Source: a virus
Lineage: Duplodnaviria; Heunggongvirae; Uroviricota; Caudoviricetes
DNA length: 64,000 nucleotides
IMG/VR virus record: IMGVR_UViG_2913177423_000001
Coordinates: 19,415 to 83,414 of that record
Direction: 5' to 3' (one strand)
The position numbers and the translations under genes are program-made. The notes below the pieces were generated by a model that was given only the letters and a program-made list of their open reading frames with translations, was not told the origin of the DNA and searched no databases. How positions within the stretch are numbered: position 1 is the first letter of the stretch; each line of letters opens with the position of its first letter. Below are positions 1,333 to 30,451 of this stretch, in pieces.

Positions 1333-1533
1333 TTGCGTTTACTTAACGTGGCTGAACTTATCCCTGCTGGTGCTAACGTTGTTGCTCGCCGTCGGTCCTG
1401 GCAGCAACCATTGTGTGTTGAGTTGTCGAAACACAGCAATGGAACAATAGAGGCTCGCAATATTGTTACTGGTGATAAGGTTCACATTACCCCGGAAAGT
1501 ACAGGCGCTGATGATTGGGAGTTTGTACATTGA
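1333..1533 (+). CDS. minimal DUF2829 (Tad2-like) domain protein, 66 aa
   Basis: TTG start 8 nt after GGAG. The pattern ...VARRRSW...TGDK...ADDWEFV matches the DUF2829 signature (G..vaRr.W ... D.lA.DWe.v). Confidence 0.55.
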   Translation: MRLLNVAELIPAGANVVARRRSWQQPLCVELSKHSNGTIEARNIVTGDKVHITPESTGADDWEFVH

Positions 1534-4397: not shown

Positions 4398-4474
4398 GGT
4401 GGTGTAGCTCAGTAGGATAGAGCAGCAGCCTTCTAAGCTGTCGGTCGGTGGTTCGAATCCACTCACCATCGCCA
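4398..4474 (+). tRNA. tRNA-Arg (anticodon UCU, reads AGA)
   Basis: Cloverleaf folded by hand: acceptor GGTGGTG/CACCATC, D arm GCTC/GAGC, anticodon loop CTTCTAA, T arm GGTGG-TTCGAAT-CCACT, encoded CCA. Confidence 0.9.
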
Positions 4475-4478
4475 AATT

Positions 4479-4554
4479 GCCGATTTAGCTCAGTTGGTAG
4501 AGCAGTCGCTTTGTAAGCGAATGGTCAGCGGTTCGATCCCGTTAATCGGCACCA
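4479..4554 (+). tRNA. tRNA-Thr (anticodon UGU, reads ACA)
   Basis: Acceptor GCCGATT/AATCGGC, anticodon loop TTTGTAA, T arm AGCGG-TTCGATC-CCGTT, encoded CCA; 4 nt after tRNA-Arg. Confidence 0.9.
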
Positions 4555-6026: not shown

Positions 6027-6102
6027 GGCCCCTTAGCTCAGTGGTTAGAGCTGGCGACTCATAATCGCACGGCCATCGGTTCAAATCCGGTAGGGGCCAC
6101 CA
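6027..6102 (+). tRNA. tRNA with CAU anticodon, Ile2 (ileX-like, AUA reader) rather than Met
   Basis: Acceptor GGCCCCT/AGGGGCC, D arm and anticodon stem-loop GGCGA-CTCATAA-TCGC match my memory of E. coli ileX/ileY; encoded CCA. Confidence 0.85.
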
Positions 6103-10921: not shown

Positions 10922-11959
10922 TTACCAGAGTTTGGCGGCGCGCTGTGTTTGGGAGAAAGTGAACCCGTAACGTTCTTCTATGGTTTTACCGTATCTTTTA
11001 CGGGCATCTGTCAGTTTTATGCCCGTAAGGTCATCTCCGGACATCATCATTACGTCTATTAACTCCAGATCCATTTTATTCAGTCTCGCCATTGCTTCGC
11101 GCGCAGTTTGTATTTTACGCTCAATGATATGGCGAATAGCCGGATCGGCTTCTTCAAGCATTTTGGTCGATTTGTTCTTTAAGCTCTCACTGCGGATATC
11201 GATGTTCCGCAAGATGTATGACTTCGCAACATAGCTTGGTTGGTGCTTCTCCAGATCGCGAACGCGATAAAGACTAAAATCACCAATCAGGCCACAAGGT
11301 ATCGACTCGACCCCAGAATAAATAGTAATGCTGCGACGTTCGCCGACATTATTAACAACGGGTACTGTGGTATCCGGAAGTTTTGCGAAAACTAAGGCGC
11401 CATGTGCGCCGACCCTGAATCGTGACAGAGTATTGCTGTCTTCGATGTTTGTTGTCAGCACGACATCTGTATATCCCTCTTTGCGCGCCCGGTAAATTTC
11501 ACCTTCAGGTTCCGCCGCAAAAAAGCGGCGCTCTTCTTCAAGCGCCCCAACAATTTGTGAAAAAATCTTGTTTTTCAGGCTCTTCTTAATAATTGCGTCA
11601 TACTTTTTGAGCAAATTTTCGCGTGTAAATGAGCGAGTAGTAGTCGCGCTTTGCACAACAATATGCGTGCTTTGATTCGTGTCCTCTATGATGATTGGGA
11701 TCGGAGAATATACAGACTCAACAATGTTAGACGCTTTGCCGTCGGCATTACGGCACAAGTCAACAAAGGCTTTCCATTCTGCGAGGCACTTTTCAGCTTC
11801 TTCTAGTACATTCTGGTCATGCGTTAGTGCAACGTGGCGGAATTCCTCGCCAGCATAACTGGTATCATGGAAAACAGAGTTTGCGACCACCAGCTCTTTC
11901 CACCGTTCAGCGGTTTGCAGGAACCGTTTGTACTCTTTCTCGATCGACTTCTTACTCAT
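10922..11959 (-). CDS. putative immunity repressor (positional analogue of P1 C1)
   Basis: Convergent with pacB and divergent from the recombinase gene, as c1 is in P1. Three operator-like words lie in its upstream region (11972-12166). Only faint sequence resemblance to C1 as I remember it. Confidence 0.45.
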   Translation of the reverse strand: MSKKSIEKEYKRFLQTAERWKELVVANSVFHDTSYAGEEFRHVALTHDQNVLEEAEKCLAEWKAFVDLCRNADGKASNIVESVYSPIPIIIEDTNQSTHIVVQSATTTRSFTRENLLKKYDAIIKKSLKNKIFSQIVGALEEERRFFAAEPEGEIYRARKEGYTDVVLTTNIEDSNTLSRFRVGAHGALVFAKLPDTTVPVVNNVGERRSITIYSGVESIPCGLIGDFSLYRVRDLEKHQPSYVAKSYILRNIDIRSESLKNKSTKMLEEADPAIRHIIERKIQTAREAMARLNKMDLELIDVMMMSGDDLTGIKLTDARKRYGKTIEERYGFTFSQTQRAAKLW

Positions 11960-15463: not shown

Positions 15464-16237
15464 ATGGAAAGCACCAAAACAACTCAATACCGCTTGCGTA
15501 ATGGCCTGCTGGTGGCTGTTAACGCCGACATGTCACTGCCGTTTGACACGATAGAACGCACTATCATGACGTATCTCGGCTTTAATGAAGAGCTGAATGA
15601 AGAGCATGGCGTAGCTATATGGAGTGATGCAGACAGCGGCGTTCGTCGTTACATCACTGCCAGAGGCAAAGACTACTCTCTGGAAGAACTGTTTACCCTT
15701 GCGCAGTCTTTCGAATGTGTAGCATTGGACCTGTTTAATGATCCTGCTATAGCGCAACGACTTATCCGCGAGCTTGGGCTGTCGGTTACCCCAATTATCT
15801 TTAAAAATGGCAGCCTGACTGGCACATGGCGCGTAGAGCGCATCTCAAACTACCTTCCATATAACCGCCAGTTAAACGGGGTAATTTCCGGCGTCAATCA
15901 GCCTGTAGCGTGTGAAAACGCAAACCTGGTTGTCGCTGTTTTGGCAACTGCATGTCGCGTTATTGGTTTGACTAAACAGGCATTTATCCATTTTCCCAAT
16001 GGTGCAGAAGGTGGCGTAGAAATTATCGCGTGTGATTTCGAATTTACCTGGATGCTTCGTGAATATCTGGACCGAACAGTGTTCCGCGCCGAAGAACTGG
16101 ATCTGTATATCACGTCAACGATTCCTGATGATGTGCGAGCTGAAGCAATCGCTACAGCCAGAGCGAAATGCCGTGCGTCGATTGCAGAACAAGCCAAAGA
16201 AGAAGTTACAGTTAAGGAAGTGGCAGATGGTAACTAA
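15464..16237 (+). CDS. hypothetical protein, 257 aa
   Basis: ATG ORF in the operon; its 3' end overlaps the next gene's ATG at 16227. Confidence 0.65.
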   Translation: MESTKTTQYRLRNGLLVAVNADMSLPFDTIERTIMTYLGFNEELNEEHGVAIWSDADSGVRRYITARGKDYSLEELFTLAQSFECVALDLFNDPAIAQRLIRELGLSVTPIIFKNGSLTGTWRVERISNYLPYNRQLNGVISGVNQPVACENANLVVAVLATACRVIGLTKQAFIHFPNGAEGGVEIIACDFEFTWMLREYLDRTVFRAEELDLYITSTIPDDVRAEAIATARAKCRASIAEQAKEEVTVKEVADGN

Positions 16238-17321
16238 GAGCAATATTTATAAAGATCCGCGCTGGCTGTCGCTGGTGGAGAAATATAAAGACAATTGGGT
16301 ACTGGCAGCAAAAGAATTGTTTGATATTGATTTAAGCCACCAGCAACAACAAATTGTTGAAGCTATACAGCCCAATAATGCAAAAGCTACTGTCACCACT
16401 CCGCATGGGATCGGACGACCGCAAGTGCTTGCTGTTATTAGTACCCTTTATACGATTATGTATCCTGATTCCCGGACAGTAATTGTTTATCCAAAATCAA
16501 ATGCTTGCAAAAGAGGAATTGTTGCATATGTGTGGCAATGTTGGGAGGCATTGCTGAAAAAACAACCTTTTATCATTGAGTATTTTAAGGTCGGTGATAG
16601 CGGTCTGATGTTCAATGAATTTTGGGGAATGTGCTTTTGTAACTACCGCCTTAACTATGAAGATAGCATTGCAGGTCACTACGCCGACCATCTTTTATTC
16701 ATTATTGTGGATTCCGCACATATCAGCGATCGGGCATACAGTATTGTGTGGGCAAGCATGACTAGTGGTGATTCACGCATATTGCTCACTTCAATTCCGT
16801 CACCAGAGGAAATAGGCTTTTTTTATGATTCACATCATGGACGTGCTTTAGCTGAAGATAATCCGAGTGGTGTCTATAAAGCCATTAAGCTGAGTGCTGA
16901 GGATTCACCATTTATTACCCAAGAATATCTTGATCATTTTGCCGAAAGGTATGGCGGGCGAAATAGTGATGACTATCGTCGTATGATTCTTGGTGAGTTC
17001 CCTGGTATTAGGGAGGCTGTTCTTGAATCAGATATGCCGAAGACAATGCGCTTTTCGATGCCTGATGGTAGTGAATGGACAATGCCATTACGAGTGATAG
17101 CCCGGCATCATGCGCAGCACCACGCCAAAAAACATAGCGTCACGACATTAGAATGGTTGAAATCGCACACTATTCCACTCTTCACTGCAGATCACAATGC
17201 TATCGTTGAGTGGGCCAAAACAATTCCGTGGGAGCATGTCGCTGAATACGCTCACATGCTAAAACCGCCGAAAGACAGACACGAAATTAGCTGGCTGACA
17301 GCCGAAAAAATCATTGAATGA
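16227..17321 (+). CDS. paralogue of the PacB ATPase domain with degenerate Walker motifs and an unrelated C-terminus
   Basis: Colinear with PacB residues ~10-290 (DPRW, QQQxI, FYDSHH, DNPxG, SPFxT, YGGRxS, LGxFP). Walker A is TPHGIGRPQ (PacB: SGHGTGKSS) and Walker B is LLFIIVDSAH (PacB: LLLILDEASG). The last ~90 aa are His-rich and unrelated to the nuclease half. Confidence 0.75.
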   Translation: MVTKSNIYKDPRWLSLVEKYKDNWVLAAKELFDIDLSHQQQQIVEAIQPNNAKATVTTPHGIGRPQVLAVISTLYTIMYPDSRTVIVYPKSNACKRGIVAYVWQCWEALLKKQPFIIEYFKVGDSGLMFNEFWGMCFCNYRLNYEDSIAGHYADHLLFIIVDSAHISDRAYSIVWASMTSGDSRILLTSIPSPEEIGFFYDSHHGRALAEDNPSGVYKAIKLSAEDSPFITQEYLDHFAERYGGRNSDDYRRMILGEFPGIREAVLESDMPKTMRFSMPDGSEWTMPLRVIARHHAQHHAKKHSVTTLEWLKSHTIPLFTADHNAIVEWAKTIPWEHVAEYAHMLKPPKDRHEISWLTAEKIIE

Positions 17322-17330
17322 TATCAACAA

Positions 17331-17360
17331 AAAGCCCGCCTGGTCTGGCGGGCTTCTTTT
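17331..17360 (+). terminator. intrinsic terminator
   Basis: AAAGCCCGCC-tggtct-GGCGGGCTTCTTTT. Confidence 0.8.
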
Positions 17361-17749
17361 CATAACACAGGGCAATCGTCAAATTCCCCACTCCGGGCAT
17401 CATTGATGATGTGGGTGATCACGCCAAACACAGCATTGCTGCCTGTATATCCATCGTCATCCTTCGGCAACGCTTCCTTCTTGCCGGATCTTAAATCCTC
17501 CAGGTGCTGATGCGGATGCTTCCGGTATCTCTTTACGCGATATTCCCCCTCTATAGCACATACAAGCAGCGAACCATCAACTGGAGTGAGTGAGGAATCG
17601 ACCACAAGCAACGCTCCTTGCAATATGCCTTCGCGGTAATGGCTGTCAGCCGCCCGCATGAAGTAGGTGGCTGATGGATGCCTGATTAGGTGCTGATCAA
17701 GAGATATGCGGCGTTCAGCGTAATCCGCCGCAGGAGAAGGGAAGCCCAT
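17360..17749 (-). CDS. humD: UmuD'-like SOS mutagenesis protein (P1 HumD-like)
   Basis: Starts MGFPSPAADYAE, which corresponds to the processed UmuD' N-terminus; S24 peptidase core. Confidence 0.85.
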   Translation of the reverse strand: MGFPSPAADYAERRISLDQHLIRHPSATYFMRAADSHYREGILQGALLVVDSSLTPVDGSLLVCAIEGEYRVKRYRKHPHQHLEDLRSGKKEALPKDDDGYTGSNAVFGVITHIINDARSGEFDDCPVL

Positions 17750-17767
17750 AGCGTTTTCACCTCTAAA

Positions 17768-17787
17768 TACTGTTTATATATACAGTA
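17768..17787. promoter_or_regulatory. LexA SOS box
   Basis: TACTGTTTATATATACAGTA, a perfect CTG-N10-CAG palindrome 19 nt upstream of humD. Confidence 0.85.
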
Positions 17788-17847
17788 TACATTAAAGAGG
17801 CTTGAAGTGTGCAATAGAGCGATGCTTTGCGCTCGCCTGGTGGCGCG

Positions 17848-18099
17848 TTATTTTTTGGCTATATCATCTTTCTGATATACCGGATCGTTCCCTTTTGGCA
17901 GCTGGAGGCTTAACTGCCGGTAGTGCCGTAGCCGTTCCATGAAATAGGTGCGCAGGTTCTCCGGCTGCTCACGGGCTACCTGTTCCGCTATGACGGGTAT
18001 GTTCAATCGCTCTTTGTAGGCTACGCCGCTGGCAGCAAGATCTACGTTTACCTTGTCTCGCTCTTCCTGATTTTTAGCCGCAATATTCCAGTCTGACAT
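17848..18099 (-). CDS. hypothetical protein, 83 aa (last gene of the leftward accessory operon)
   Basis: ATG ORF with ordinary composition. Confidence 0.55.
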
Positions 18100-18120
18100 A
18101 AAATAGCCCTAATTTATTGA

Positions 18121-18534
18121 TTAGTGTTCATCCCAGGGAGACATATCCGGAAGGGTATCAACAATACGGAATTTACCGGGATAACGGTATCTACAGCCCG
18201 CCTGAGTCCATACAGTAACGACAAATCCCCCGCCCTGTTCATCTTCAGGTAGCAGGCGATCTGCTTGCTCGGAAACCATGTGGACCACAAAAGGAGCATC
18301 ACTACCGTCTTCGAATAGCACCTCAAGGGCGTCCCGGCCTTCCAGGCTACCTCTGCTGATGATGACATATTCTGCACCGCGCATTTCTTTCAACAAATGC
18401 TTTGCGGAGTCAGGCACAAGCAACCTGGCTGCGCCAGCGTTCCACGAGAGATACACATATCCAGCTCGTGCATTTTCTGACTTCCAGTAGTCAGTTTCCT
18501 TTAACGCCTGACCTTCGTTCTTAATGAAAAACAT
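18121..18534 (-). CDS. hypothetical protein, 137 aa
   Basis: ATG at 18534 is preceded by GGGAG with 5-nt spacing; the track start at 18567 lacks an SD. Confidence 0.6.
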   Translation of the reverse strand: MFFIKNEGQALKETDYWKSENARAGYVYLSWNAGAARLLVPDSAKHLLKEMRGAEYVIISRGSLEGRDALEVLFEDGSDAPFVVHMVSEQADRLLPEDEQGGGFVVTVWTQAGCRYRYPGKFRIVDTLPDMSPWDEH

Positions 18535-18616
18535 AAAAACTCCCTTTTCAAATTTTCGAGTAAACAACTTAGCGCGGAATCAGTATTCGCCCCAAGATGT
18601 AAAAAGTCCACCAGCG

Positions 18617-18889
18617 TTATGGTTCGCATTTCCATATGGTGTTCTGAACGCCAGTACCGGGCGCGAGATGGGGGTTAGCGTTCGCGCTATGCTGATATAC
18701 GGCTTTAGACTTTCCATATTGCTGACAGGCTTTATCTGCGGTTTTTTGCAGGCTATCCAGCCCATACCAGCCATCTGACTGAATGCTTACCTTTTCACCG
18801 TCGTTGTATTGCACCATCGCACACCCGGACATAGCCAACATCGCACCGACAATAACGCTTTTCCATAAAACTCTATGCAACATATACAA
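18617..18889 (-). CDS. putative lipoprotein
   Basis: Signal peptide ending in the lipobox LAMSGC. Confidence 0.6.
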   Translation of the reverse strand: MYMLHRVLWKSVIVGAMLAMSGCAMVQYNDGEKVSIQSDGWYGLDSLQKTADKACQQYGKSKAVYQHSANANPHLAPGTGVQNTIWKCEP

Positions 18890-18952
18890 AAATCCCCTCT
18901 GTGAATTAAGGGGATTTTAACATGGTGATCGGATATCAGCTTTATCCGGAAT

Positions 18953-19687
18953 TTAATCAGCCTCCAGTGGCAATAACGCCTTAGCCATTTCATGAATCAG
19001 CATGGCATCAATGACGCCTAGCGTATGGCCCGGCTTAATCTTTAATGCGGCCTCAAGATAGCCTCTTTCCAGAGTGGTTTTTACGCTTTTCCTGGGCGCT
19101 TGTTGGGGACTATCCGGAAGATCCGGATGGTTGCCAGCCTCATAAGCTACCCGCAACCAGTGCATGAATGTTTCCGCAGACACACAACCACAGTCCACAT
19201 CGATTTTCCCGCGTTGCTGTTCCAGCCATTGCTCAAAATCTAACTTGCAAGCCTTACTTTCAAGTTCATCACCATTGAACTCGACTTTCTGCGACGCTAT
19301 GAGAGCGGCTTCGTACTGTTCGCGAGAGACAACTGACTGGTATTCATCGCTATCAAGGTCACGAATTGGAAGCTCAATCTCACGACAAAAATTCCGCCCA
19401 TAGAACTGGTCTTTTTTGTGGTCTGAGCCAAAAGCAAAAGTCGCGCATGGCGCCATTAAATTGACACTGAGTATGTGACAATAACTCATGCCATCAGGCC
19501 ATCCGCCGCACTTAGGCAACTCCTTCACTAATAAGTCGATCAGCTTCATTGTTTTACCATCTTTGCAAGTCGCCAAAGCCATTTGAGCAAGCGCCAATAC
19601 TTCATCTGCCGTATATCCAGCACCGTGACCATACATTTCTATTCGGGAAATAATCTCTGATATACGCTCTTTATTGATTCTGATCAT
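18953..19687 (-). CDS. hypothetical protein, 244 aa
   Basis: ATGA overlap with the upstream gene at 19684-19687. Confidence 0.65.
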   Translation of the reverse strand: MIRINKERISEIISRIEMYGHGAGYTADEVLALAQMALATCKDGKTMKLIDLLVKELPKCGGWPDGMSYCHILSVNLMAPCATFAFGSDHKKDQFYGRNFCREIELPIRDLDSDEYQSVVSREQYEAALIASQKVEFNGDELESKACKLDFEQWLEQQRGKIDVDCGCVSAETFMHWLRVAYEAGNHPDLPDSPQQAPRKSVKTTLERGYLEAALKIKPGHTLGVIDAMLIHEMAKALLPLEAD

Positions 19688-19908
19688 AGTTCTATTTCCT
19701 TGCATGGTTCGCCTTTACGGCACACAGTAGCGCGATCATTTCTCACATTAACCACTGTCACCGTCCCATCATCACATTGAGTAACAATGAAAGGGTATTC
19801 GCTCTCTTTTATGCAATGTTGCTGTTCTCCAGCCGTTACAACAAAGGGGATTAATAAAGTCAAAAGCACTGCTAATTTACTAAATGTAGCCATAGCGATC
19901 GTTACCAT
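19684..19908 (-). CDS. small secreted Cys-containing protein
   Basis: N-terminal signal-like segment FSKLAVLLTLLIPFVVTAG. Confidence 0.5.
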   Translation of the reverse strand: MVTIAMATFSKLAVLLTLLIPFVVTAGEQQHCIKESEYPFIVTQCDDGTVTVVNVRNDRATVCRKGEPCKEIEL

Positions 19909-20108
19909 AACTTTCCTCCTGACTCAAAGTCAGCTATAAGCCAGGCTGCAAAAAGCGGAAACCCGCTCCAAAAACCACACGCCTCCGTACCCCATGTCAC
20001 ACCACCAGCCAACAAAACAAATAAACCGCAAAAGCATACAAACAAAAAAGTAATCCAAATTTCTTTCTGTTTTTCATTATGGTTGACTCCAGTTATCTTC
20101 AATAACAA
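19902..20108 (-). CDS. small membrane protein (two TM segments)
   Basis: Hydrophobic stretches ITFLFVCFCGLFVLLAGGV and GFPLFAAWLIA. Confidence 0.5.
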   Translation of the reverse strand: MLLKITGVNHNEKQKEIWITFLFVCFCGLFVLLAGGVTWGTEACGFWSGFPLFAAWLIADFESGGKLW

Positions 20109-20370
20109 TACTTAACCTCTGAAGCCATTCAGCTAATTTCAACATGGCTTCTCTTTCGCTTAAACCACGCGGAAAATCATCAAGCGAAATTGCTGGCTTG
20201 ATGATCCCCGAATTATCCATTTCAACGGTCAGATTTTGCTCCAGCACGGTATTCCTTACGCGGCTATTGTGCCGAAGCAAATATACTGAACGTGATTTAT
20301 TGGTTTTGTGGTCGAACGTATATTCGGTAAGTATCATCTGGCTTCCGCCATGATTATTACCGCGCCACAT
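20077..20370 (-). CDS. hypothetical protein (start uncertain; ATG at 20337 is possible)
   Basis: ORF in the operon; no motif recognised. Confidence 0.5.
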   Translation of the reverse strand: MWRGNNHGGSQMILTEYTFDHKTNKSRSVYLLRHNSRVRNTVLEQNLTVEMDNSGIIKPAISLDDFPRGLSEREAMLKLAEWLQRLSIVIEDNWSQP

Positions 20371-20382
20371 AATTACTCCGTG

Positions 20383-20799
20383 TTAATAAGAGAAATAGAC
20401 CGTTGCAACACTGTTATATTGGTCGAACGAAATAGCATTTACTTCATAGCTGGTGGGCAGCTTCTTACCAAGAATGTAGCCTGGCCATGAGTTCCACGGA
20501 ATTTCTGCACGGTCGTCGTCTTGCCACATTACGCAACCAAGAGAGCCAACCATTTCACCATATCGCTTGCCACAAGTAACAAAGCCGATATTCGGCTTTT
20601 CTTGTGTTACTGATACCGTGGTGGTATTGGCAGATGCATTGATTGCAGTACGCCGCGCTTGCTCGCTAGCGATAGAAGCATTTACTGCCGCCGTGGTCGC
20701 TGCTGTTGCCGCCGCTCCAGCGGCAATAACTGACGCGTGGGATAAATGACTGGCTGATAACATAGCCAGAAAAATAATAGCTCTTTGAAATTTAGCCAT
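20383..20799 (-). CDS. secreted protein with Ala/Thr-rich linker
   Basis: Signal peptide MAKFQRAIIFLAMLSASHLSHA. Confidence 0.55.
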   Translation of the reverse strand: MAKFQRAIIFLAMLSASHLSHASVIAAGAAATAATTAAVNASIASEQARRTAINASANTTTVSVTQEKPNIGFVTCGKRYGEMVGSLGCVMWQDDDRAEIPWNSWPGYILGKKLPTSYEVNAISFDQYNSVATVYFSY

Positions 20800-21073
20800 T
20801 GATATTCACCTTTATTGCGTACACCTTTACCGGATTCTCTCCAAAGTGCGGATGTGTAATTGTCTTTATTTCATACCCTTCATACGGGACGTCTATTCTG
20901 CGACTGGAGTCGTCGCGCTTCGGATATCCCCTTGTGATAATCAGGCGGTCATACTCCCGGAACATAATTCGCTTATTCCAGTAGTCATTACACAGGCGAT
21001 ACTCTTCCGTTTTCTCTCCGCGAATGATGGCATCGAAGTATTCACCTTTAACGGCAAGTTGCAGGTTAGCCAC
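20792..21073 (-). CDS. ASCH-domain-like protein
   Basis: GTG at 21073 is preceded by GGAG and overlaps the upstream stop. The pattern KGEYFDAIIRGEKTEEYR...ITRGYP resembles ASCH. Confidence 0.5.
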   Translation of the reverse strand: MANLQLAVKGEYFDAIIRGEKTEEYRLCNDYWNKRIMFREYDRLIITRGYPKRDDSSRRIDVPYEGYEIKTITHPHFGENPVKVYAIKVNING

Positions 21074-21575
21074 GGTTAACTCCTTGCTGTGTGGCGTCGA
21101 GTAATAAATCCCACAACCGCTGAGAGCAATTTCCGCATGTACAGCGTTGACCCACAACGTTTATCGCGTTGCTGATTTCCGGCGTTACCTGTTTAGGAAC
21201 CATAACCCAACCATCCGGAGTTACCGGAGAGTTGCGCATTGCGACCTTTAATGCCTCATAGAAGCAACTTTTCAGATTGTTGAACTGACGCCCATTTAGA
21301 GGGCCGTGTTCAGTCAGCATGTTGTGTAATTTCCATGCCGCGTCGTTTACTTCGTTGGATGACAGGGGAGGCAGCTTGTAAGCCTGGCTTACAGGCTCGT
21401 CACCATTAAGCATGGCAGCGCGGAGTTTCTGTATCTCCCGTGCCATTATTGCGTCCTGACGAGGAGTGAACATATCACCTGCAATAATTCTGTTTAGTTC
21501 CTCGTCAGTGAACTCATAATCATCAGGAACATTGTTAACCTCAGCATAAAGAGGCTTTTTGGTAGAAATGGTCAT
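21066..21575 (-). CDS. hypothetical protein, 169 aa
   Basis: ATGA overlap with the upstream gene. Confidence 0.65.
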   Translation of the reverse strand: MTISTKKPLYAEVNNVPDDYEFTDEELNRIIAGDMFTPRQDAIMAREIQKLRAAMLNGDEPVSQAYKLPPLSSNEVNDAAWKLHNMLTEHGPLNGRQFNNLKSCFYEALKVAMRNSPVTPDGWVMVPKQVTPEISNAINVVGQRCTCGNCSQRLWDLLLDATQQGVNRG

Positions 21576-22198
21576 CGTAAAACACCCTCCACACTTACCA
21601 GTCCGTTCCGCAAAAGATAATCCATCGCCCTATCTGGTAATTTGCAATCAGGTTTTGCTTTTTTCAGTTGGCTGACCAATTGTTTAACCAGCATTGTTAA
21701 TTCGATAACCTGGTAGCGCGGCAATGGTGAATTATCGGATTTGTCCTGACTGTCTGCGCTGCATGAATGCCCTTCCAGCCAAGCCAATGCTTGTCGCATG
21801 AAATACGCAATATGTTTGCCGTGGTAATCGTCTTCATCGATGTGAAAAGCGATACTGCGGATGTATTCAATTGCGTTTTCAATGGCCTCCGGCGTTATCG
21901 GCGCTGACATATTTTGATTTTGGAATGCCAAGACGCGGCTGGCATCCTCAACACCTTTAACTGCATCTGCGCAGTAGTTATAGCGATTGCATTCCACTAA
22001 CTTCTGCTTGAGATTTTCAATTGCTTGCGCGATTTTATCCGGCACTGGCGGTTCTGCCCGGCCTTTCCAGCCTTCCCACATGGCAGCCATCATCACGAAC
22101 CAGGTGTTTCCACAGCCATCTTTTTTGTTATCAAAGAACCAGTCAGCGAACTCTAGGCTCATGCCATTTTGTTCTGCTATTTCATATCGATTATCCAT
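21572..22198 (-). CDS. hypothetical protein, 208 aa; C-terminal module shared with the DUF4406 protein
   Basis: C-terminal KLPDRAMDYLLRNGLVSVEG parallels PLPNDAMNYLKSCGVVSEDA in the gene at 25272..25895. Confidence 0.65.
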   Translation of the reverse strand: MDNRYEIAEQNGMSLEFADWFFDNKKDGCGNTWFVMMAAMWEGWKGRAEPPVPDKIAQAIENLKQKLVECNRYNYCADAVKGVEDASRVLAFQNQNMSAPITPEAIENAIEYIRSIAFHIDEDDYHGKHIAYFMRQALAWLEGHSCSADSQDKSDNSPLPRYQVIELTMLVKQLVSQLKKAKPDCKLPDRAMDYLLRNGLVSVEGVLR

Positions 22199-22213
22199 TG
22201 TTCATCTCCTTGT

Positions 22214-22495
22214 TTAGCATGGCGGCGCGGCGTATAGCTTACGGGTCTGAACGCCTTCCCCAAGGCGTTTCTCTCCCTCGGCAAACCATTCGAAAGCACA
22301 TTCCCCGCAATCTTCCCATTCCCCCCATTCATCATTTTCTGCATCCCACTGGCGATACTGATATGCCACAGGCTCTGCTCCCAGCGATGCCAGCGCAATT
22401 TCATAAGCACGGCGCTCAATATTGTCTCTAACGTCCAGGCTACCGATTCGCTCTTTGATTTCTTTAATCAGTTCTTTGTCTGTAAAAGTGTTCAT
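22214..22495 (-). CDS. hypothetical protein, 93 aa
   Basis: ATG ORF in the operon. Confidence 0.6.
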   Translation of the reverse strand: MNTFTDKELIKEIKERIGSLDVRDNIERRAYEIALASLGAEPVAYQYRQWDAENDEWGEWEDCGECAFEWFAEGEKRLGEGVQTRKLYAAPPC

Positions 22496-22498
22496 AGG

Positions 22499-22687
22499 TT
22501 ATCCTCTAAGTGCCACAACGCGCACTTCCGGGTCAAAGGATGATGAATTTTCATCTGTAATATCAGCGACATGGACTACGAAATCGTTATAGTCACCCTC
22601 TGATTGGTCATAGCCCTGCCAGACCACGACAGCCTCAGGAGGCATTTTTCTGAGCTTGCTGATTAACTGCCTCACTGTCAGTGACAT
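22499..22687 (-). CDS. hypothetical protein, 62 aa
   Basis: ATG at 22687 is preceded by AAGGAG and overlaps the upstream stop; the longer track ORF overlaps its neighbour. Confidence 0.55.
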   Translation of the reverse strand: MSLTVRQLISKLRKMPPEAVVVWQGYDQSEGDYNDFVVHVADITDENSSSFDPEVRVVALRG

Positions 22688-22688
22688 A

Positions 22689-23243
22689 TCACTCTCCTTT
22701 GATGCGAATGCCAGCGGCGCGGATAGATTTCCATTGTTCCCACATTCGGTTGAAGTCTGTGCCTGATAAGGTTGCGTTACGGTATCCAGTTTCGGTACGC
22801 AATCCTTCAAGCGTCGATTTGGAGATACAAATTGAATGCATTACCCATGATTCAAACAAATCACGCTCCCGAGCTTCGCAACTTTGCTTACTCATATATT
22901 CGATACGATCAGCCATCGCAGCGCACTCTTCAAAGTTGCTAAATGCCTTTCGCTCCCATTCAGCGCATTGTTTTCTAAGCTCTGCAATCAGCTTGTCTTT
23001 GCCTTCCAGCTCAACGCGCAGCTTCCCTACCGTTAGCGCAATATCCTCATTCTCCTGATCGCGGTGTTTGATGTATTGCTGGTTTCTTTCCCGTTCATCC
23101 AGAAGCGCTAGCACAATGTGTGGCGTTATCAAGGACTCAAATTCGGTAACAGCTTGCTCACCTCGCTTGTAATTCTTAATCCCACCTAAATTTTTCGCGT
23201 TCTGTGCCGCCTCACGCAGTGCCTGGTAATTAATTTCGCTCAC
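22689..23243 (-). CDS. Ead/Ea22-like coiled-coil protein (paralogue A)
   Basis: The segment ALTVGKLRVELEGKDKLIAELRK is shared with the gene at 24267..24968. Confidence 0.65.
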   Translation of the reverse strand: MSEINYQALREAAQNAKNLGGIKNYKRGEQAVTEFESLITPHIVLALLDERERNQQYIKHRDQENEDIALTVGKLRVELEGKDKLIAELRKQCAEWERKAFSNFEECAAMADRIEYMSKQSCEARERDLFESWVMHSICISKSTLEGLRTETGYRNATLSGTDFNRMWEQWKSIRAAGIRIKGE

Positions 23244-23947
23244 TGGCTGCCTCCTTTGCGAAGCTCTGCGGCAAAGTCAGTGGCATGTTCACCGAGTAGT
23301 TTCCAGTTATCGCGTATATCAGATGCAAGCGACTGTTCGGATTTTGAGTTACATTTCTGTGCAAACATCTCCACCCCCTGCGCCCGCACTTCAGCCAGGA
23401 AAGCGCCAGTAGCAGGAGTGTCAATGCAAACACTGTCACGAAGGATGAAGAACGCATTAAGCATTCCTCTTTCTGGTACATCGTCCTGGCATTCCTCATA
23501 TGCAGCCAATGCATCCATCATTTTCTGACCGAATTGCGGAGGTTGTGCAGATTTCAGTGCTATATTCTCCGCCGCCAGCGTCGCGCGATTGCTCTCCAGT
23601 TCTGCAATGCGCTGTTTTGCGGCATCAAGTTCAATCGACAATTTTTCCAACTGCTCTTTATGCTTTTTGTATGCCTGATATGCGTGCCAGGACTGTCCTT
23701 TGCGCACACTTTCAGTAATATCAGAAATCTGTTCTGGTGTTAGCGTGGTCAGTGGCTGCGCCGGGAAAATCAGCACTTTCCCGGCATCCCAATCAAAACC
23801 CGCCTGAATTGACTGAACCTCAACTGATGGTGTTGAACCAATGCTACCTGGTGAATGGATAACAATCGCCATGTCCATATCACGATGCTGGCAGTGTTTG
23901 TTGGACAAGATACGATTCACCAACTCAGAAAATTTGGAAAATTTCAT
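23240..23947 (-). CDS. Ead/Ea22-like coiled-coil protein (paralogue B)
   Basis: ATGA overlap at 23944-23947. [23 protein letters not shown] parallels [23 protein letters not shown] in paralogue C. Confidence 0.65.
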
Positions 23948-24270
23948 GCTGATTCCCTTTGCTCTTCTTGGATAATGTTGTTGCAATCTTTCACGCACTC
24001 GTCACAGATGAAAACGTTGTCCCCGGCAATTAACTTTTTGACGGTGTGCTGGGATTTATTGCAGAAGCTGCAATAAAGCGTTGGACTGGCTGATACGGAT
24101 GGTGCTCCGGATGTCAGCCGCGCGATGTCGTCCTTGCGGCGCAACATCACACGGCAGCACTCAGCAAGTTTCTCCGGGGAGATTCCTTCCTCCGTGGCGA
24201 GTGCCTCCAGTCGTTCAAGCACGTGGAAGGCTTTTTCCTGGGTAAATGCAGAATGTGATATGGCCATCAT
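23944..24270 (-). CDS. small protein carrying a ClpX-type C4 zinc-binding domain
   Basis: C-terminal [39 protein letters not shown] is nearly superimposable on the E. coli ClpX N-domain ([39 protein letters not shown], from memory). Confidence 0.8.
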
Positions 24271-26986: not shown

Positions 26987-27082
26987 ATGAACAATTACAA
27001 ACTTTTCCCATCACTCACCGTCTACTCACGCAATAACCTGCGTTCTTTGCTCCCATCAAAACTGGAGGGAGTATCAAAATGA
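26987..27082 (+). CDS. 31-aa leader ORF (weak call)
   Basis: AAGGAG RBS; its stop overlaps the next ATG (ATGA). Confidence 0.3.
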   Translation: MNNYKLFPSLTVYSRNNLRSLLPSKLEGVSK

Positions 27083-27246
27083 CCGTTCGCTACCTGAATT
27101 ATCAAATCCAGAACATCACTGGCGGTTGCTATGACTGGTTTGTCACTCTTGGTAAAGAAGTGATCACCGGGAAGCTGGATGAAGTGAAAGCTAAAGCAAT
27201 GGCCTACGCCTGCAAGCAAGCCCAAAAGAAGAAAAGAAAAGCATAA
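27079..27246 (+). CDS. 55-aa basic-tailed protein (not in the ORF track)
   Basis: GGAGGGAG RBS 7 nt upstream. Translation is MTVRYLNYQIQNITGGCYDWFVTLGKEVITGKLDEVKAKAMAYACKQAQKKKRKA. Confidence 0.5.
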   Translation: MTVRYLNYQIQNITGGCYDWFVTLGKEVITGKLDEVKAKAMAYACKQAQKKKRKA

Positions 27247-27352
27247 GAAAACACACTGTTGCGCCCTGGCATTATCGTGGGGTATATTTCTACGGCACCT
27301 TAGAAAAACGGGTGCCGGGATTGGTCTCCCGGTAATGTCAAAGGCGACACAT

Positions 27353-27374
27353 AGACGCCGCAAGCGTCTTTTTT
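27353..27374 (+). terminator. intrinsic terminator inside the immI-like leader
   Basis: AGACGC-cgcaa-GCGTCT followed by TTTTT. Confidence 0.7.
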
Positions 27375-27538
27375 GTTGTCGGCGCACTCGCACACCTATC
27401 AATGGTGGGCTGTGTGGTGGCTTCCTCGGAAGCGCCGGTTCCCTTTGACGCCGGTAAGACCAACTCCACACAGTCCACCGCCAGTAAGATTGGTCTCTTC
27501 GGCGGTGGTATCGTTCACTGTCAAAGGAGGCTGCCAAT

Positions 27539-27754
27539 ATGGCTACTACCCCTACCCCAACTCATTCTGAATTTATCTGGCGTTTCTATTCCTGCCAAAA
27601 ACACCTGTATATCTGCGTAATGGCTGCTACCGAAGCAGAAGCTCGCTCATACCTTCCTGATACTCCCTGCATTTTTGCTGCCCGCTTCACTCTTGATGCG
27701 ATGGAGATCCTCAATTACTGGAATCTGCCGATGAACTGCGTGGAGGTGCACTGA
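27539..27754 (+). CDS. 71-aa protein in the position of P1 icd
   Basis: AAGGAGG RBS; its stop overlaps the ATG of the antirepressor-like gene (TGATG). Assigned by position only. Confidence 0.5.
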   Translation: MATTPTPTHSEFIWRFYSCQKHLYICVMAATEAEARSYLPDTPCIFAARFTLDAMEILNYWNLPMNCVEVH

Positions 27755-28680
27755 TGAATCTGTCCATCTCTCAAAAAGCGACAATGACCAGCATTGAGAT
27801 CGCGGAGCTGGTAGGTAAGCGTCCTGATAACGTTAAACGCACCATTGAACACCTAGCGGAACGGGGCGTAATATCTTTTCCTCAAATTGAGGAAAAGCCC
27901 ACCGCAGGGCGCCCGGCGAGCTATTACGTCTTCGAAGGCGAGCAAGGCAAGCGCGACAGCATTATTGTCGTCGCACAGCTTTCTCCTGAATTTACCGCCC
28001 GGCTGGTGGACCGCTGGCGCGAACTGGAGAATGCCAGGGGACCGTTAAAAACAAAGGCCGAAATTCTGGCTGAAATGGCGCAAATGCATCTTGAGCATGA
28101 ACGCAGGATCAACGCCGTAAATGCCCAGGTAGCCGAAGTTTCGGCACAAGTGTCCAGGGTCGCTGAAACCGTCGAGCAAATAAAGAAAGGCAATATGCCG
28201 GAAGGTTACATTGGCTACCGCCAGCTGGCGGCGAAATGTGGCTTGACTGAAGCCAAATGTCGCAACCTGGTCAACGCTTACCGTATCCCCACCGATACGC
28301 ATGAGTTTTTAACGCCCGATGGTTTGCTTGCCCGACGCTCCATTGTGGCCCTGGCCCCCTTCCGGAAAGCCTTTAAGCAGGTTATGTCGGAGGCCGAACC
28401 ACGTAATAAACGCTGGTATCATCCAAAAATGGGCCTCTTTCAGGCAATCCACCATCCTTTACCGAAAATCCCAAAAGATAATCTGTCACTGCATACAGCC
28501 AGAGAGAAGATCAGAAGTGGATATGCAACGGTATGCCGTCGTGCCTCATGGTCTGAAGGTGTATGGGTATGGCCCGAAGGCGGATCAAGGAAGCACTGGC
28601 GCACTATCCGAGATGGTAAAATTCATGCTATTGATTTAGCGCCAGAGGATATGGTTGCTATGGACTGGATTGTTAGTTAA
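27754..28680 (+). CDS. Rha-family antirepressor-like protein fused to a C-terminal DUF2829-like module
   Basis: N-terminal MTSIEIAELVGKRPDNVKRTIEHL fits Phage_pRha. C-terminal ...CRRASWSEGVWVWPEG...APEDMVAMDWIVS fits DUF2829. Confidence 0.7.
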   Translation: MNLSISQKATMTSIEIAELVGKRPDNVKRTIEHLAERGVISFPQIEEKPTAGRPASYYVFEGEQGKRDSIIVVAQLSPEFTARLVDRWRELENARGPLKTKAEILAEMAQMHLEHERRINAVNAQVAEVSAQVSRVAETVEQIKKGNMPEGYIGYRQLAAKCGLTEAKCRNLVNAYRIPTDTHEFLTPDGLLARRSIVALAPFRKAFKQVMSEAEPRNKRWYHPKMGLFQAIHHPLPKIPKDNLSLHTAREKIRSGYATVCRRASWSEGVWVWPEGGSRKHWRTIRDGKIHAIDLAPEDMVAMDWIVS

Positions 28681-28688
28681 TTACTGTT

Positions 28689-28710
28689 GCCCCGGCCTGT
28701 CCGGGGCTTT
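28689..28710 (+). terminator. intrinsic terminator
   Basis: GCCCCGG-cctgt-CCGGGGC followed by TTT. Confidence 0.7.
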
Positions 28711-28739
28711 AACTGCTAAATAATCGGATTCTCCGCACG

Positions 28740-29051
28740 ATGAAGAAAATAGATTTCACTTACTCTGCCGCCACAGTCCAGCGACGTTTCAGTCTCATAA
28801 GGGAAGTGGAACTATCAAAAACCGGGTATCAGGTTCTGTTGGATGAAGAGTTATCACTGATGGTAATAGCAGAAAAATTGGCTATGCCGAATGATCGGCA
28901 CAAAGTCATTGCAAGCCTTGACCTGGTAACAAACAGATACTGGGAAGCAGAGGGACCACATGGAGATGGTGTAATACGCGAAATGATTGAACAAGCGACG
29001 CCCCTACGCTATCGGATACGAAATGAAGTCACCATAATTGAAAGGTCTTAA
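28740..29051 (+). CDS. hypothetical protein, 103 aa
   Basis: ATG ORF; no motif recognised. Confidence 0.5.
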   Translation: MKKIDFTYSAATVQRRFSLIREVELSKTGYQVLLDEELSLMVIAEKLAMPNDRHKVIASLDLVTNRYWEAEGPHGDGVIREMIEQATPLRYRIRNEVTIIERS

Positions 29052-29182
29052 CGATAGTCTGCCACGAATAGTAACTTCCACTGCCTTAAGTTATTTAATT
29101 GCATTACAAAGTGTAAATTAGTAATATTAGAGTCTCACACAGCACTATAACTATATGTTTTTTATGTAAAAGGACGATAATT

Positions 29183-29533
29183 TTGGCTACTAAAGTTAAA
29201 CTAGAAAATCCGCAAACTGGCGAGTCAATAACAGGTTTTTATGGCTTTTCCTGGACTACATTCTTGTTTGGCGCTTTTCCAGCTTTGTTCAGGAAAGACT
29301 TTATAACTTTTGTTGGGGTATTCGTTGTGATGCTGATACTGGCATGCCTCACATTCGGAATTGGCCCTTGGATAGCCTCGTTTATCTGGGCGTTCATGTA
29401 CAATAAATATTTCACCGTAAATAAGATAAAACAAGGATTCGTATTTGCTAGTTCTCACACAGAAAATGAGTTAGCCGCCAGCAAACTTGGATTAGCCTTA
29501 AATCAAAACAACTGCAAAACTATTACCGCGTGA
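29183..29533 (+). CDS. small inner-membrane protein (DUF2628-like), AT-rich moron
   Basis: TTG start; two TM segments after the FYGFSWTTFLFGAFPALFRKDF motif. Confidence 0.5.
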   Translation: MATKVKLENPQTGESITGFYGFSWTTFLFGAFPALFRKDFITFVGVFVVMLILACLTFGIGPWIASFIWAFMYNKYFTVNKIKQGFVFASSHTENELAASKLGLALNQNNCKTITA

Positions 29534-29537
29534 AACC

Positions 29538-29570
29538 AAAAAAGCAGGCTTATTTTAAGCCTGCTTTTTC
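29538..29570. terminator. bidirectional intrinsic terminator
   Basis: AAAAAAGCAGGCTTA-tttt-AAGCCTGCTTTTT between convergent genes. Confidence 0.8.
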
Positions 29571-29575
29571 GATTA

Positions 29576-30451
29576 CTAGTCCTGCTGACAATTAAGGAAC
29601 ATAAACGCACGTTTGTCCGTTAAATCAGTAACATAATATTCACGAATACCATTCGGTTTTATGCGGCGAGCATACACAAACTTATGAACTGGCTGGTCGC
29701 TGCCATAACTAACCTCAGTGCGAAATTCATCGACCGTGCTACCATCCTTTTCTGTCTCTTTGCGTATCAGTTTATTGTTCAGATCTGGCTGAGTCTCATC
29801 CATTCCGCTAAATGCATCTTGCCCGGTACTATTACCCCGGTTGCCACGTGGTAAATCCCACGAAAAATAAGTCCCATAGTCTGTAATTACCTGATCCCAC
29901 GCCCCGGTTTCATCCATATAATGACTACGCTTCCCTTGGTATGTTACGTCAACCTTACAGGAAAACGTTGGCGCGCTATTACTTGCAGCTGAGGCCGTTG
30001 AAGATTGTGTAACACTGCCATTGTTGGCATTTCCATAGTTCCAGCCATCATGCAACGCTTTAACCCACAGATTAGTCAGGGATAGCGTAACATCATTCCC
30101 CAACGCCTGGCTGATTCGAAGCCTCTGTATCCGGCGTAACCCATACTCATAGGCTTCATCGTCATTAATCACTCGCCCACGTTGAGCGGCTACCACCCCA
30201 GATTGCCACGCACGATTAATTTCACGAATAAGATACACTTGTGGATCAACGCCGTATCTGTTGTATTCATAGTAAAGGCTCATTGCGCCGTGTTGGCTCT
30301 GGTATTCATTAGCCCATGATATAACCGCGTTTCTTCCATAATCCGCGAGCGCAGAATGACTTGACAGAAGAAGAGCAACGCCAACAGTCTTCAGTAATTT
30401 GAATCGGCACAACTTTTTAATAATACGATTGGGAAATGTTTTTTTGCTCAC
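29576..30451 (-). CDS. secreted protein of unknown function, 291 aa (moron)
   Basis: Signal peptide LLKTVGVALLLSSHSALA; own terminator; surrounded by AT-rich DNA. Confidence 0.65.
   Translation of the reverse strand: MSKKTFPNRIIKKLCRFKLLKTVGVALLLSSHSALADYGRNAVISWANEYQSQHGAMSLYYEYNRYGVDPQVYLIREINRAWQSGVVAAQRGRVINDDEAYEYGLRRIQRLRISQALGNDVTLSLTNLWVKALHDGWNYGNANNGSVTQSSTASAASNSAPTFSCKVDVTYQGKRSHYMDETGAWDQVITDYGTYFSWDLPRGNRGNSTGQDAFSGMDETQPDLNNKLIRKETEKDGSTVDEFRTEVSYGSDQPVHKFVYARRIKPNGIREYYVTDLTDKRAFMFLNCQQD

Follow-up and report, generated by a model that had tools for sequence, protein, structure and literature searches.

A predicted minimal Tad2-fold module in an antirepressor-position protein and in c4-controlled loci of D6-like phage-plasmids

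The antirepressor-position gene in the immI-type operon of a D6-like phage-plasmid encodes a protein in which a Rha-type regulator is followed by a small C-terminal module with a predicted Tad2-like fold (PF11195, formerly DUF2829). The module occurs in three arrangements, namely fused to the Rha-type protein, as a separate gene coupled to it and as a solo gene, and in the fused lineage it is under purifying selection. The reading tentatively preferred here, with a probability of roughly 0.45, is that the module is an autonomous Tad2-fold binder gated by the c4 antisense RNA, probably a sponge of altered specificity, which has been fused to a co-expressed antirepressor. The DNA analysed is a stretch of 64,000 nucleotides, referred to as the window, from an element related to Escherichia phage D6, which is itself a plasmid prophage of the P1 family, with positions 27000-29600 being 87.8% identical to D6.

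The gene is the ortholog of D6 orf82, annotated as 'anti-repressor Ant', and its translation is the 308-residue one first quoted. At least 118 full-length homologs (301-314 aa, 76-96% identity) are found on ~90-kb E. coli and Salmonella phage-plasmid contigs, under the NCBI name 'Rha family transcriptional regulator'. Indexed searches returned close relatives only, none of them with a precomputed PF11195 annotation. From its position and synteny, a match to PHROG 63 (4e-64) and the D6 annotation, we infer that the gene acts as an antirepressor, by way of its Rha-type part. Similarity to P1 Ant1 is marginal (~80 aa; in a 3-protein database, blastp E 0.011 and phmmer E 0.004), and the protein was therefore not accepted as a P1 Ant1/Ant2 ortholog or as a KilA homolog. 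The presumed target of the antirepressor is a gene which the first-pass annotation had placed in the repressor position, a label justified by its identity to D6 c1 (Table 1). No Pfam domain was found in this ORF, and in the phage collection no similarity to P1 C1 could be detected. Since c1 is D6-like and the ant-slot protein lacks Ant1 orthology, both repressor and antirepressor are of a non-P1 type.

As read from its sequence, the operon around positions 27398-28680 has the layout of P1 immI, with c4, icd and ant, which agrees with the earlier assignment of the gene to the ant slot of an immI-like operon. A c4 RNA, two pairs of a/b targets, one of them over the ribosome-binding site of the first ORF, and a coupled icd homolog have all been detected, the icd stop codon overlapping the ant start (TGATG). 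The 8-nt c4 target match is weak when taken alone, being reached in 24 of 500 shuffles; the paired and duplicated arrangement of targets recurs in all four loci examined by complementarity search, and the sister loci have an Rfam c4-a1b1 match at the equivalent position of the leader. In P1, c4 prevents the first ORF from being translated and thereby the coupled downstream genes from being expressed. A GC-rich hairpin immediately after the ant stop codon possibly marks the end of the operon; it is absent from the terminator-scan list because its T-run is short.

Table 1. Coordinates, within the window, of the features discussed
Feature	Position	Strand	Evidence or remarks
Stand-alone 66-aa module paralog (D6 orf11 homolog)	1333..1533	+	tblastn E 0.03 to module; phrog_7206
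D6-type c1 repressor homolog, presumed Ant target	10922..11959	-	89% identical to D6 c1, annotated 'phage repressor protein'
Leader segment upstream of c4, with a1 and b1 targets and terminator-like hairpin	27295..27374	+	Rfam isrK, 61 bits (cutoff 50)
a1 target, TTGGTCT	27321-27327	+	Complementary to c4 positions 60-66
b1 target, GTCAAAGG	27337-27344	+	Complementary to c4 positions 45-52
Terminator-like hairpin in leader, followed by T-run	27353-27369	+	Terminator scan
c4 antisense RNA	27398..27485	+	Rfam RF01695, 73.7 bits (cutoff 45), E 1.7e-12, full model length
a2 target, TTGGTCT	27490-27496	+	Direct complementarity search
b2 target, GTCAAAGG	27520-27527	+	Direct complementarity search; overlaps icd Shine-Dalgarno, begins 19 nt before ATG
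icd-like gene, 71 aa	27539..27754	+	64% identity to P1 Icd; phrog_1426 at 9e-41; D6 orf83 annotated Icd-like
Antirepressor-position gene, Rha::mini-Tad2 fusion	27754..28680	+	308 aa
Rha winged-helix domain, aa 11-93	27784..28032	+	Pfam PF09669 Phage_pRha, 30.6 bits (cutoff 29.9), full profile length
Long helix, aa 101-144	28054..28185	+	AF2 full-length model
Middle HTH-like alpha/beta domain, aa 152-213	28207..28392	+	AF2 model; HTH matches weak
Linker, aa 214-244 (AF2: low confidence 214-245)	28393..28485	+	pLDDT 31-40; without internal start signal
Mini Tad2-like (DUF2829-fold) module, aa 245-308, 64 aa	28486..28677	+	Predicted fold, profile homology
GC-rich hairpin GCCCCGG-CCTGT-CCGGGGC, then TTT	28689..28710	+	Just 3' of ant stop; read from sequence

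Domain boundaries, a check proposed in the first-pass annotation, were obtained from Pfam and AF2 and divide the protein into five successive parts (Table 1). The Rha-type N-terminus which had been claimed is recognized by PF09669 above its cutoff, and the AF2 model places a winged helix at aa 4-94 with a pLDDT of about 80; the threshold of NCBIfam TIGR02681 was missed by the 308-aa protein (12.7 vs 45.95). The long helix that follows is probably a coiled coil. In the full-length model, which has an overall pLDDT of 63 and, like the separate model of the module, represents a monomer, the ~30-aa, presumably flexible linker that precedes the module makes no contacts with other parts of the protein. 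The linker was also searched for an internal start from which the module could be translated in the fused gene, and neither an ATG nor a Shine-Dalgarno sequence was found.

The last ~65 residues had been described as carrying the DUF2829 pattern. Searches of the full 308-aa protein against Pfam and NCBIfam gave no DUF2829 match. When a 69-aa segment was excised, PF11195 was the sole match and extended from end to end, but at 9.9 bits and E 1.4, below the gathering threshold of 25 bits. When 1.84 billion representatives were searched exhaustively with phmmer, only six matches emerged, stand-alone relatives of the module among them; P0132 (ankyrin) and P0133 (WD40/STAND) were discarded as repeat-protein false positives. 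The best family member, a stand-alone relative of 96 aa (P0131), reaches 23.9 bits (E 6e-5) over the whole PF11195 profile, and 5 of the 14 module-family members match this profile at E up to 10. The reference set for profile comparison consisted of nine genuine DUF2829 proteins from annotated phages, a consensus having been used as bait only; SPO1 Tad2 is gp34.65, and the sequence retrieved reproduces the published residue numbering. Compared with these nine proteins by hhalign, the module family gave a probability of 88.5% (P 2.8e-6, 63 columns), with 60 column shuffles giving at most 3.8% and a reversed profile 0.1%.

Structure prediction points in the same direction. The AF2 model of the module alone, a monomer built from a shallow 14-sequence alignment, has a pLDDT of 85.7 and a pTM of 0.70, and shows a helix, four strands, a short helix and a further strand, an order which agrees with the published description of Tad2. 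In a Foldseek comparison with the PDB, the first 15 ranks are all occupied by Tad2 (SPO1 Tad2 and ModTad2) at a probability of 1.00 and TM 0.68-0.76 (about 0.72), followed by a drop to probability 0.38 and TM 0.34 at rank 16. PDB chains matched by sequence or profile search (TcdA repeats, IF-1, aequorin) were false, and Tad2 was not reached in this way. Far from being structurally unrelated to DUF2829, the segment has a predicted Tad2-like fold, and the DUF2829 pattern first described is upheld by both hhalign and Foldseek, though the Pfam threshold was missed. On these profile and model grounds the module represents a divergent and minimal version of the Tad2-like fold, and proteins as short as 65-75 aa are found among those annotated as Tad2-like. 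A conserved subfamily of the fold is missed by the PF11195 threshold.

The ligand pocket of the module differs from that of characterized Tad2 proteins. In SPO1 Tad2, W25, N26, W73 and D79 are the main contacts for gcADPR, with contributions from I63, T65, D67, H71, S76 and T78, and in HgmTad2 the contacts are W21/N22 and S90/T92/D93. Known Tad2 proteins are homotetramers with the ligand pockets located between protomers, and as sponges they bind 1''-3' gcADPR or His-ADPR and block Thoeris. Residues were mapped by MAFFT and hhalign, since a 9-sequence DUF2829 HMM aligned the C-terminal motif only in hmmsearch. Three MAFFT modes agree that R22, W25, D67, H71, D79 and D84/W85 are kept (as R263, W266, D287, H291, D299 and D304/W305 of the window protein), and that W73, S76 and T78 are replaced (by I293, A296 and E298). 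The N26 position corresponds to S267 or a gap in the window protein in MAFFT and is Pro in 110 of 119 aligned sequences, hhalign differing from MAFFT by one position in the W25/N26 register. At the W73 position, members of the module family have I, V, Y or F. The equivalents of W25, D79, R22 and D84/W85 are invariant in the family, G17 is also conserved, and the family has an invariant motif of its own (vCRRxxWxxGxWxWP). The beta2-beta3 insertion (SPO1 residues 36-59), which in known Tad2 carries helix alpha2, forms a dimer interface and in larger Tad2 proteins has a cyclic dinucleotide site, is absent from the module. As two of the four principal gcADPR contacts are conserved and two replaced, neither binding of gcADPR nor sponging of a known immune signal can be taken for granted, and the residue pattern makes another ligand or another mode of action likely. 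The replacement of two gcADPR contacts, the changes at S76 and T78, the absent alpha2 insertion and the missed Pfam threshold would weaken any reading of the module as a sponge.

Outside the fusion, the module has been found as a separate gene in a second immI-like operon of D6, which adjoins repL and comprises c4, icd (orf19), a 235-aa Rha-type Ant (orf18) and a separate 65-aa gene, orf17. The latter, annotated as 'hypothetical protein', is the module, and its ATG overlaps the stop codon of orf18 (TGATG). The same layout is seen on a metagenomic contig (L006), and split loci generally follow a Rha protein of 235-242 aa. Rha proteins of the orf18 type share 68-76% identity with residues 1-237 of the window protein, and orf17 only ~45% with the module of the window. 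In PLSDB, ~110 plasmids have the split form and ~100 the fused form, with both present in some of the listed examples; in IMG/VR, 19 fused and 21 split loci were identified, and six contigs hold both. A c4 RNA lies upstream in 21/21 split and 17/19 fused IMG/VR loci, the remaining two fused loci being truncated. The recognition sequences of c4 were found by complementarity search to differ between types of immI locus, so the two operons of one element are probably separately controlled. A second immI locus was not found inside the window; by comparison with D6, whose copy lies upstream of darB, it would precede the first base of the window.

Two further arrangements separate the module from the Rha-type protein altogether. 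On phage-plasmids of 88-110 kb (L002/L003, a Raoultella plasmid, and L004; proteins P0131 and P0130), the module is the first ORF, 44-52 nt after c4, with a1/b1 upstream and b2 15-23 nt before the ATG, and neither icd nor a Rha gene occurs at these loci. In another locus (L039), icd has lost its 3' end and ant about 225 codons through a deletion that left c4, a truncated 59-aa icd and an intact module; the remaining 83-aa ORF, linker plus module (P0003), was seen on 7 contigs. ORFs of 81-83 aa named 'transcriptional regulator' (P0005, P0003) were considered as a separate family and rejected, as they represent an IS26-truncated remnant (L018) and this deletion derivative, respectively. The existence of split, solo and Rha-deleted forms makes the module look like an autonomous unit rather than an allosteric sensor that forms part of Ant. 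Beyond these elements, the module was found in none of 50,697 phage records except D6 (two GenBank records), and 185,579 species-representative genomes gave one partial match, in a Nitrospirota MAG.

A third, stand-alone paralog lies within the window itself, downstream of darB in a ulx / pmgM-like / pmgR neighbourhood that corresponds to the D6 run of darB, ulx, orf13, a pmgM-like gene and orf11. Its family aligns with the module family in hhalign at 79% (P 1.6e-5; shuffles at most 1.8%), and its direct comparison with DUF2829 was not significant (2.8%), so that on profile evidence it is linked to DUF2829 transitively only, through the module family. D6-like genomes thus have three diverged module paralogs, the two immI copies being about 45% identical to each other. 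The third copy is found in the darB-ulx anti-restriction neighbourhood, and the existence of several diverged copies fits an arsenal of binders better than a single repressor-contact surface.

These observations can be accommodated in a model where transcription would proceed from the leader with a1/b1 through c4, icd and the ant-slot gene, and c4 would pair with a2/b2 over the icd ribosome-binding site. Through this pairing, icd and the coupled ant-slot gene would be off in the lysogen; icd, the Rha-type protein and the module would be made upon infection, heteroimmune superinfection or failure of c4 control. The module itself might act on its own as a small homo-oligomeric sponge of a nucleotide-derived molecule, its pocket altered relative to gcADPR-binding Tad2; its oligomerisation, ligand binding and any anti-defence role are putative. 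Its fusion to Ant could have arisen from co-transcription and translational coupling, as a Rosetta-stone fusion of adjacent genes. Gating by c4 would restrict the module to the lytic or early phase and keep counter-defence shut down in the lysogen. Sponges described so far have to be expressed early, and fusions with other proteins are frequent among them (bioRxiv 10.1101/2023.05.01.538930, 10.1101/2025.07.12.664507).

Residue conservation was assessed on an alignment of 119 sequences, the window protein and its 118 homologs. Among the latter, conservation is uneven, with pairwise identities of 0.78 for the Rha domain (the most variable), 0.99 for the middle domain and 0.91 for the module. Against D6-type alleles, dN/dS in the fused lineage is 0.03 for the middle domain, about 0.1 for the linker and 0.06-0.11 for the module at a dS of about 0.6. 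Split-type copies of the module have values of 0.5-1.1 on very few substitutions, which include changes at otherwise invariant positions. The module is retained in 118/118 full-length homologs, and its frame is intact in these and in 40/40 IMG/VR loci, including those that have lost the Rha body or carry a frameshift in it. In some IMG/VR alleles the Rha body is interrupted by indels or stop codons, which fall mostly in homopolymer runs and may be sequencing errors. Since the fused form, linker included, is under purifying selection, the fusion may matter functionally.

In the main alternative, the module would be part of the antirepressor machinery, the Tad2 fold having been re-used to bind the D6-type C1 or to multimerise Ant, and at the solo loci it would itself be the antirepressor. 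The strict association with c4, which extends to the solo loci, is consistent with this, as is the degraded pocket. Where the module is the sole c4-controlled ORF, tight antisense repression would fit a disruptor of immunity better than a harmless sponge. Nonetheless, the two immI paralogs in one phage are only ~45% identical although the C1 they would face is the same, the third paralog lies outside any immunity region, and the middle domain, from its 99% identity and low dN/dS, is a better candidate for repressor contact. We know of no Tad2-fold protein that acts through repressor binding, and this alternative is considered somewhat unlikely.

A second alternative was raised in the first-pass annotation, where it was suggested that the lysis-lysogeny switch might be wired to an immune or nucleotide signal. 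The module would then bind such a messenger and switch Ant allosterically or through oligomerisation, triggering or blocking induction. Physical fusion through a linker that is itself conserved speaks for a ligand-gated antirepressor, as do the fold, which is shared with a known signal-binding protein, and the retention of the W25 and D79 equivalents in the module. In the split form, translational coupling matches production of the module to that of Ant, and a non-covalent complex could form. Against this, the split, solo and Rha-deleted forms demonstrate that the module need not share a polypeptide with Ant, and the ~30-aa linker is modelled without contacts to the remaining domains. Production of Ant is already gated by c4, and a specific higher-order assembly would be needed, as Tad2 pockets lie between the protomers of a tetramer. 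No precedent for such an antirepressor is known to us. The anatomy on which the suggestion was based has held; the comparative data do not favour the wiring itself, which the separable forms make unnecessary and which appears very unlikely. That the C-terminal segment is a decaying and functionless remnant of a formerly separate gene is extremely unlikely: the sub-threshold Pfam score, the altered pocket residues and the dN/dS near 1 of the few split-type substitutions would agree with decay, but the low dN/dS of the fused lineage at a dS of about 0.6, the frame preserved at every locus and the confidently predicted AF2 fold do not.

The module and its operon can be compared with several known systems. 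Tad2-type sponges are known either as products of single early genes in lytic and temperate phages or as parts of fusions with other sponges. With Tad2 (Thoeris anti-defense 2) the module shares the succession of alpha1, four beta strands, a short helix and a last strand, the conserved G17, R22, W25, D79 and D84-W85, and its occurrence as a small phage protein, being also found stand-alone (65-96 aa). It differs in its sub-threshold score, in the replaced N26, W73, S76 and T78, in the missing alpha2 insertion, in its fusion to a Rha-type regulator and in its control by c4 antisense RNA. Fusions of Tad2 to other sponges, Acb4 and Sequestin (PF21825), have been published and similarly consist of a Tad2 domain joined by a linker to a partner, with each part also found alone; there, however, the partner is a sponge, whereas the partner in the window protein is a regulator of DNA-binding type encoded in an immunity operon. 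AcrIIA7 (DUF2829; PDB 8kbi), a reported Cas9 inhibitor whose mechanism is not established, has no sequence-level or contextual similarity to the module beyond the shared fold.

The operon resembles P1 immI (c4, icd, ant1/ant2) in its paired a/b targets, icd homolog, translational coupling and adjoining sim-like genes. Unlike in P1, the ant-slot gene is not an Ant1/2 ortholog, the repressor is of the D6 type without detectable similarity to P1 C1, two operons of this kind, which differ in their c4 recognition sequences, are present in D6-like elements, and the window operon ends in a Tad2-fold module which is absent in P1. Rha/Roi regulators (PF09669; phiP27, HK97 Roi, APSE P42) share the N-terminal Rha winged helix and, in lambdoid relatives, have c4/isrK-like RNA elements upstream, but they lack the C-terminal module throughout the 50,697 phage records, with D6 as the sole exception. 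Prophage-encoded Tad2-like genes have been noted in the literature, and the second c4/icd region of D6-like plasmids has already been remarked on. In the searchable literature, no description was found of a Tad2-fold module fused to a Rha-type antirepressor or under c4 control. Both the fold and the operon type are known; the combination and its regulatory context are new, as is the observation that the module is separable and always follows c4.

Whether fused, split or solo, a minimal and divergent Tad2-fold module is thus tied to the immI operons of phage-plasmids that form a common family in E. coli and Salmonella. Two or more copies are present in most such elements, and the third, stand-alone paralog is also found in D6 and in the window. 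As phage D6 can be cultivated and has the full set of three copies, the question of their function is directly testable. Recruitment of the Tad2 fold into a P1-type switch, either as a sensor that ties antirepressor activity to a host immune second messenger, so that the prophage would abandon an alarmed cell, or as a new kind of antirepressor in the solo loci, where the module is the sole product under c4 control, is distinctly unlikely; if antirepression or signal sensing were true, bacterial immune signalling would be linked to the lysis-lysogeny decision. If the module is a sponge, a ligand other than gcADPR is indicated, and a temperate element would keep its counter-defence silent in the lysogen and release it on lytic entry.

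Variation along the 308-aa product of the ant gene is unevenly distributed. Among homologs that are otherwise 85-95% identical, the most variable stretch is the recognition segment of the Rha winged helix (about aa 11-60, window 27784..27930), which also contains a 5-aa indel; across the middle domain (aa 151-213), conservation stands at 99%. Taken together, this pattern suggests that the N-terminus of the protein has allele-specific targets. A second discontinuity appears in the comparison with D6, where dS reaches 0.6-0.9 in the linker and the C-terminal Tad2-fold module (28393..28677), two to three times the 0.2-0.3 found in the coil and middle domain (28054..28392), which suggests a recombination breakpoint near the domain boundary between these two parts.

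Further copies of the module have been found in fused, split and solo arrangements. The solo protein P0131, from the phage-plasmid locus L002, carries a 25-aa N-terminal extension and begins with MTTPQ..., resembling the MATTPT... start of Icd in the window, a hint that the solo locus may have been born of a deletion joining the start of icd to the module. In several IMG/VR contigs of the fused type (L032, L034-L038), the Rha body is broken by indels or stop codons, including an additional C in a C-run at gene nt 601 shared by three contigs from three samples (L036-L038), and the module frame is still open despite these interruptions, which reflect either homopolymer sequencing errors or natural splitting and pseudogenisation. 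In the split-type module genes (L042-L061) the differences are mostly non-synonymous, with 4-13 non-synonymous against 0-3 synonymous changes and dN/dS of 0.5-1.1, and otherwise invariant positions are altered (CRR to CCR, G to E and G to D). These copies could be under relaxed or diversifying selection, the counts being too small to tell. The sole match among species-representative genomes came from a distant phylum, in a Nitrospirota MAG contig (CAVUHW010000031.1, L021), and is partial, covering residues 9-38 at 43% identity to the CRR..W..G.W.WP motif.

Features of the window and of one related locus are listed in the table below.

Coordinates of the features discussed (window positions unless another locus is named)
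Feature	Position	Strand	Assignment
Stand-alone 66-aa ORF, D6 orf11 homolog	1333..1533	+	phrog_7206; sequence MRLLNVAELIPAG...ADDWEFVH
tRNA genes (three)	4398-4471, 4479-4551, 6027-6099		Rfam tRNA, 65-68 bits
D6-type c1 repressor homolog, 344 aa	10922..11959	-	phrog_1678
Leader with c4 a1/b1 target copies and terminator-like hairpin	27295..27374		Rfam isrK model match
pmgF-like gene and gene for 116-aa predicted membrane protein	28740..29533		phrog_7349 and phrog_4915; downstream of ant
Solo module protein P0131	L002 6001-6291		

No Pfam domain was found in the c1 homolog, and none of the collection's other phage repressors was detectably similar to it; c1 of this type is the master repressor of this common phage-plasmid family. 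Regarding the leader RNA upstream of c4, isrK is an Hfq-binding sRNA of Salmonella, and the equivalent leader position in sister loci is matched by the c4-a1b1 model, not by isrK. Beyond the pmgF-like and membrane-protein genes lies a simB-like gene, which is encoded on the other strand. Like the window with its three tRNA genes, D6 carries tRNA-Asn and tRNA-Thr in the corresponding region.

The stand-alone ORF, flanked by a VRR-NUC (pmgM-like) gene on one side and a pmgR-like gene on the other, with ulx and darB upstream, is distantly paralogous to the module, with an hhalign probability of 79% against the module family. The Tad2-fold mini-proteins or domains thus number three in D6 and three in the window, immI copies included. 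Outside the window, D6-like phage-plasmids (locus L017, which is D6 15792-23986, and the metagenomic contig L006) carry two immI-like operons, each comprising c4, icd, a Rha-type Ant and the module, which is fused in one operon and split in the other. Since the c4 recognition sequences differ between the two (TTGGTCT/GTCAAAGG versus TTGACAG/GTTAGTGA), this arrangement implies that a single D6-like element would possess two antirepressor circuits under independent control.
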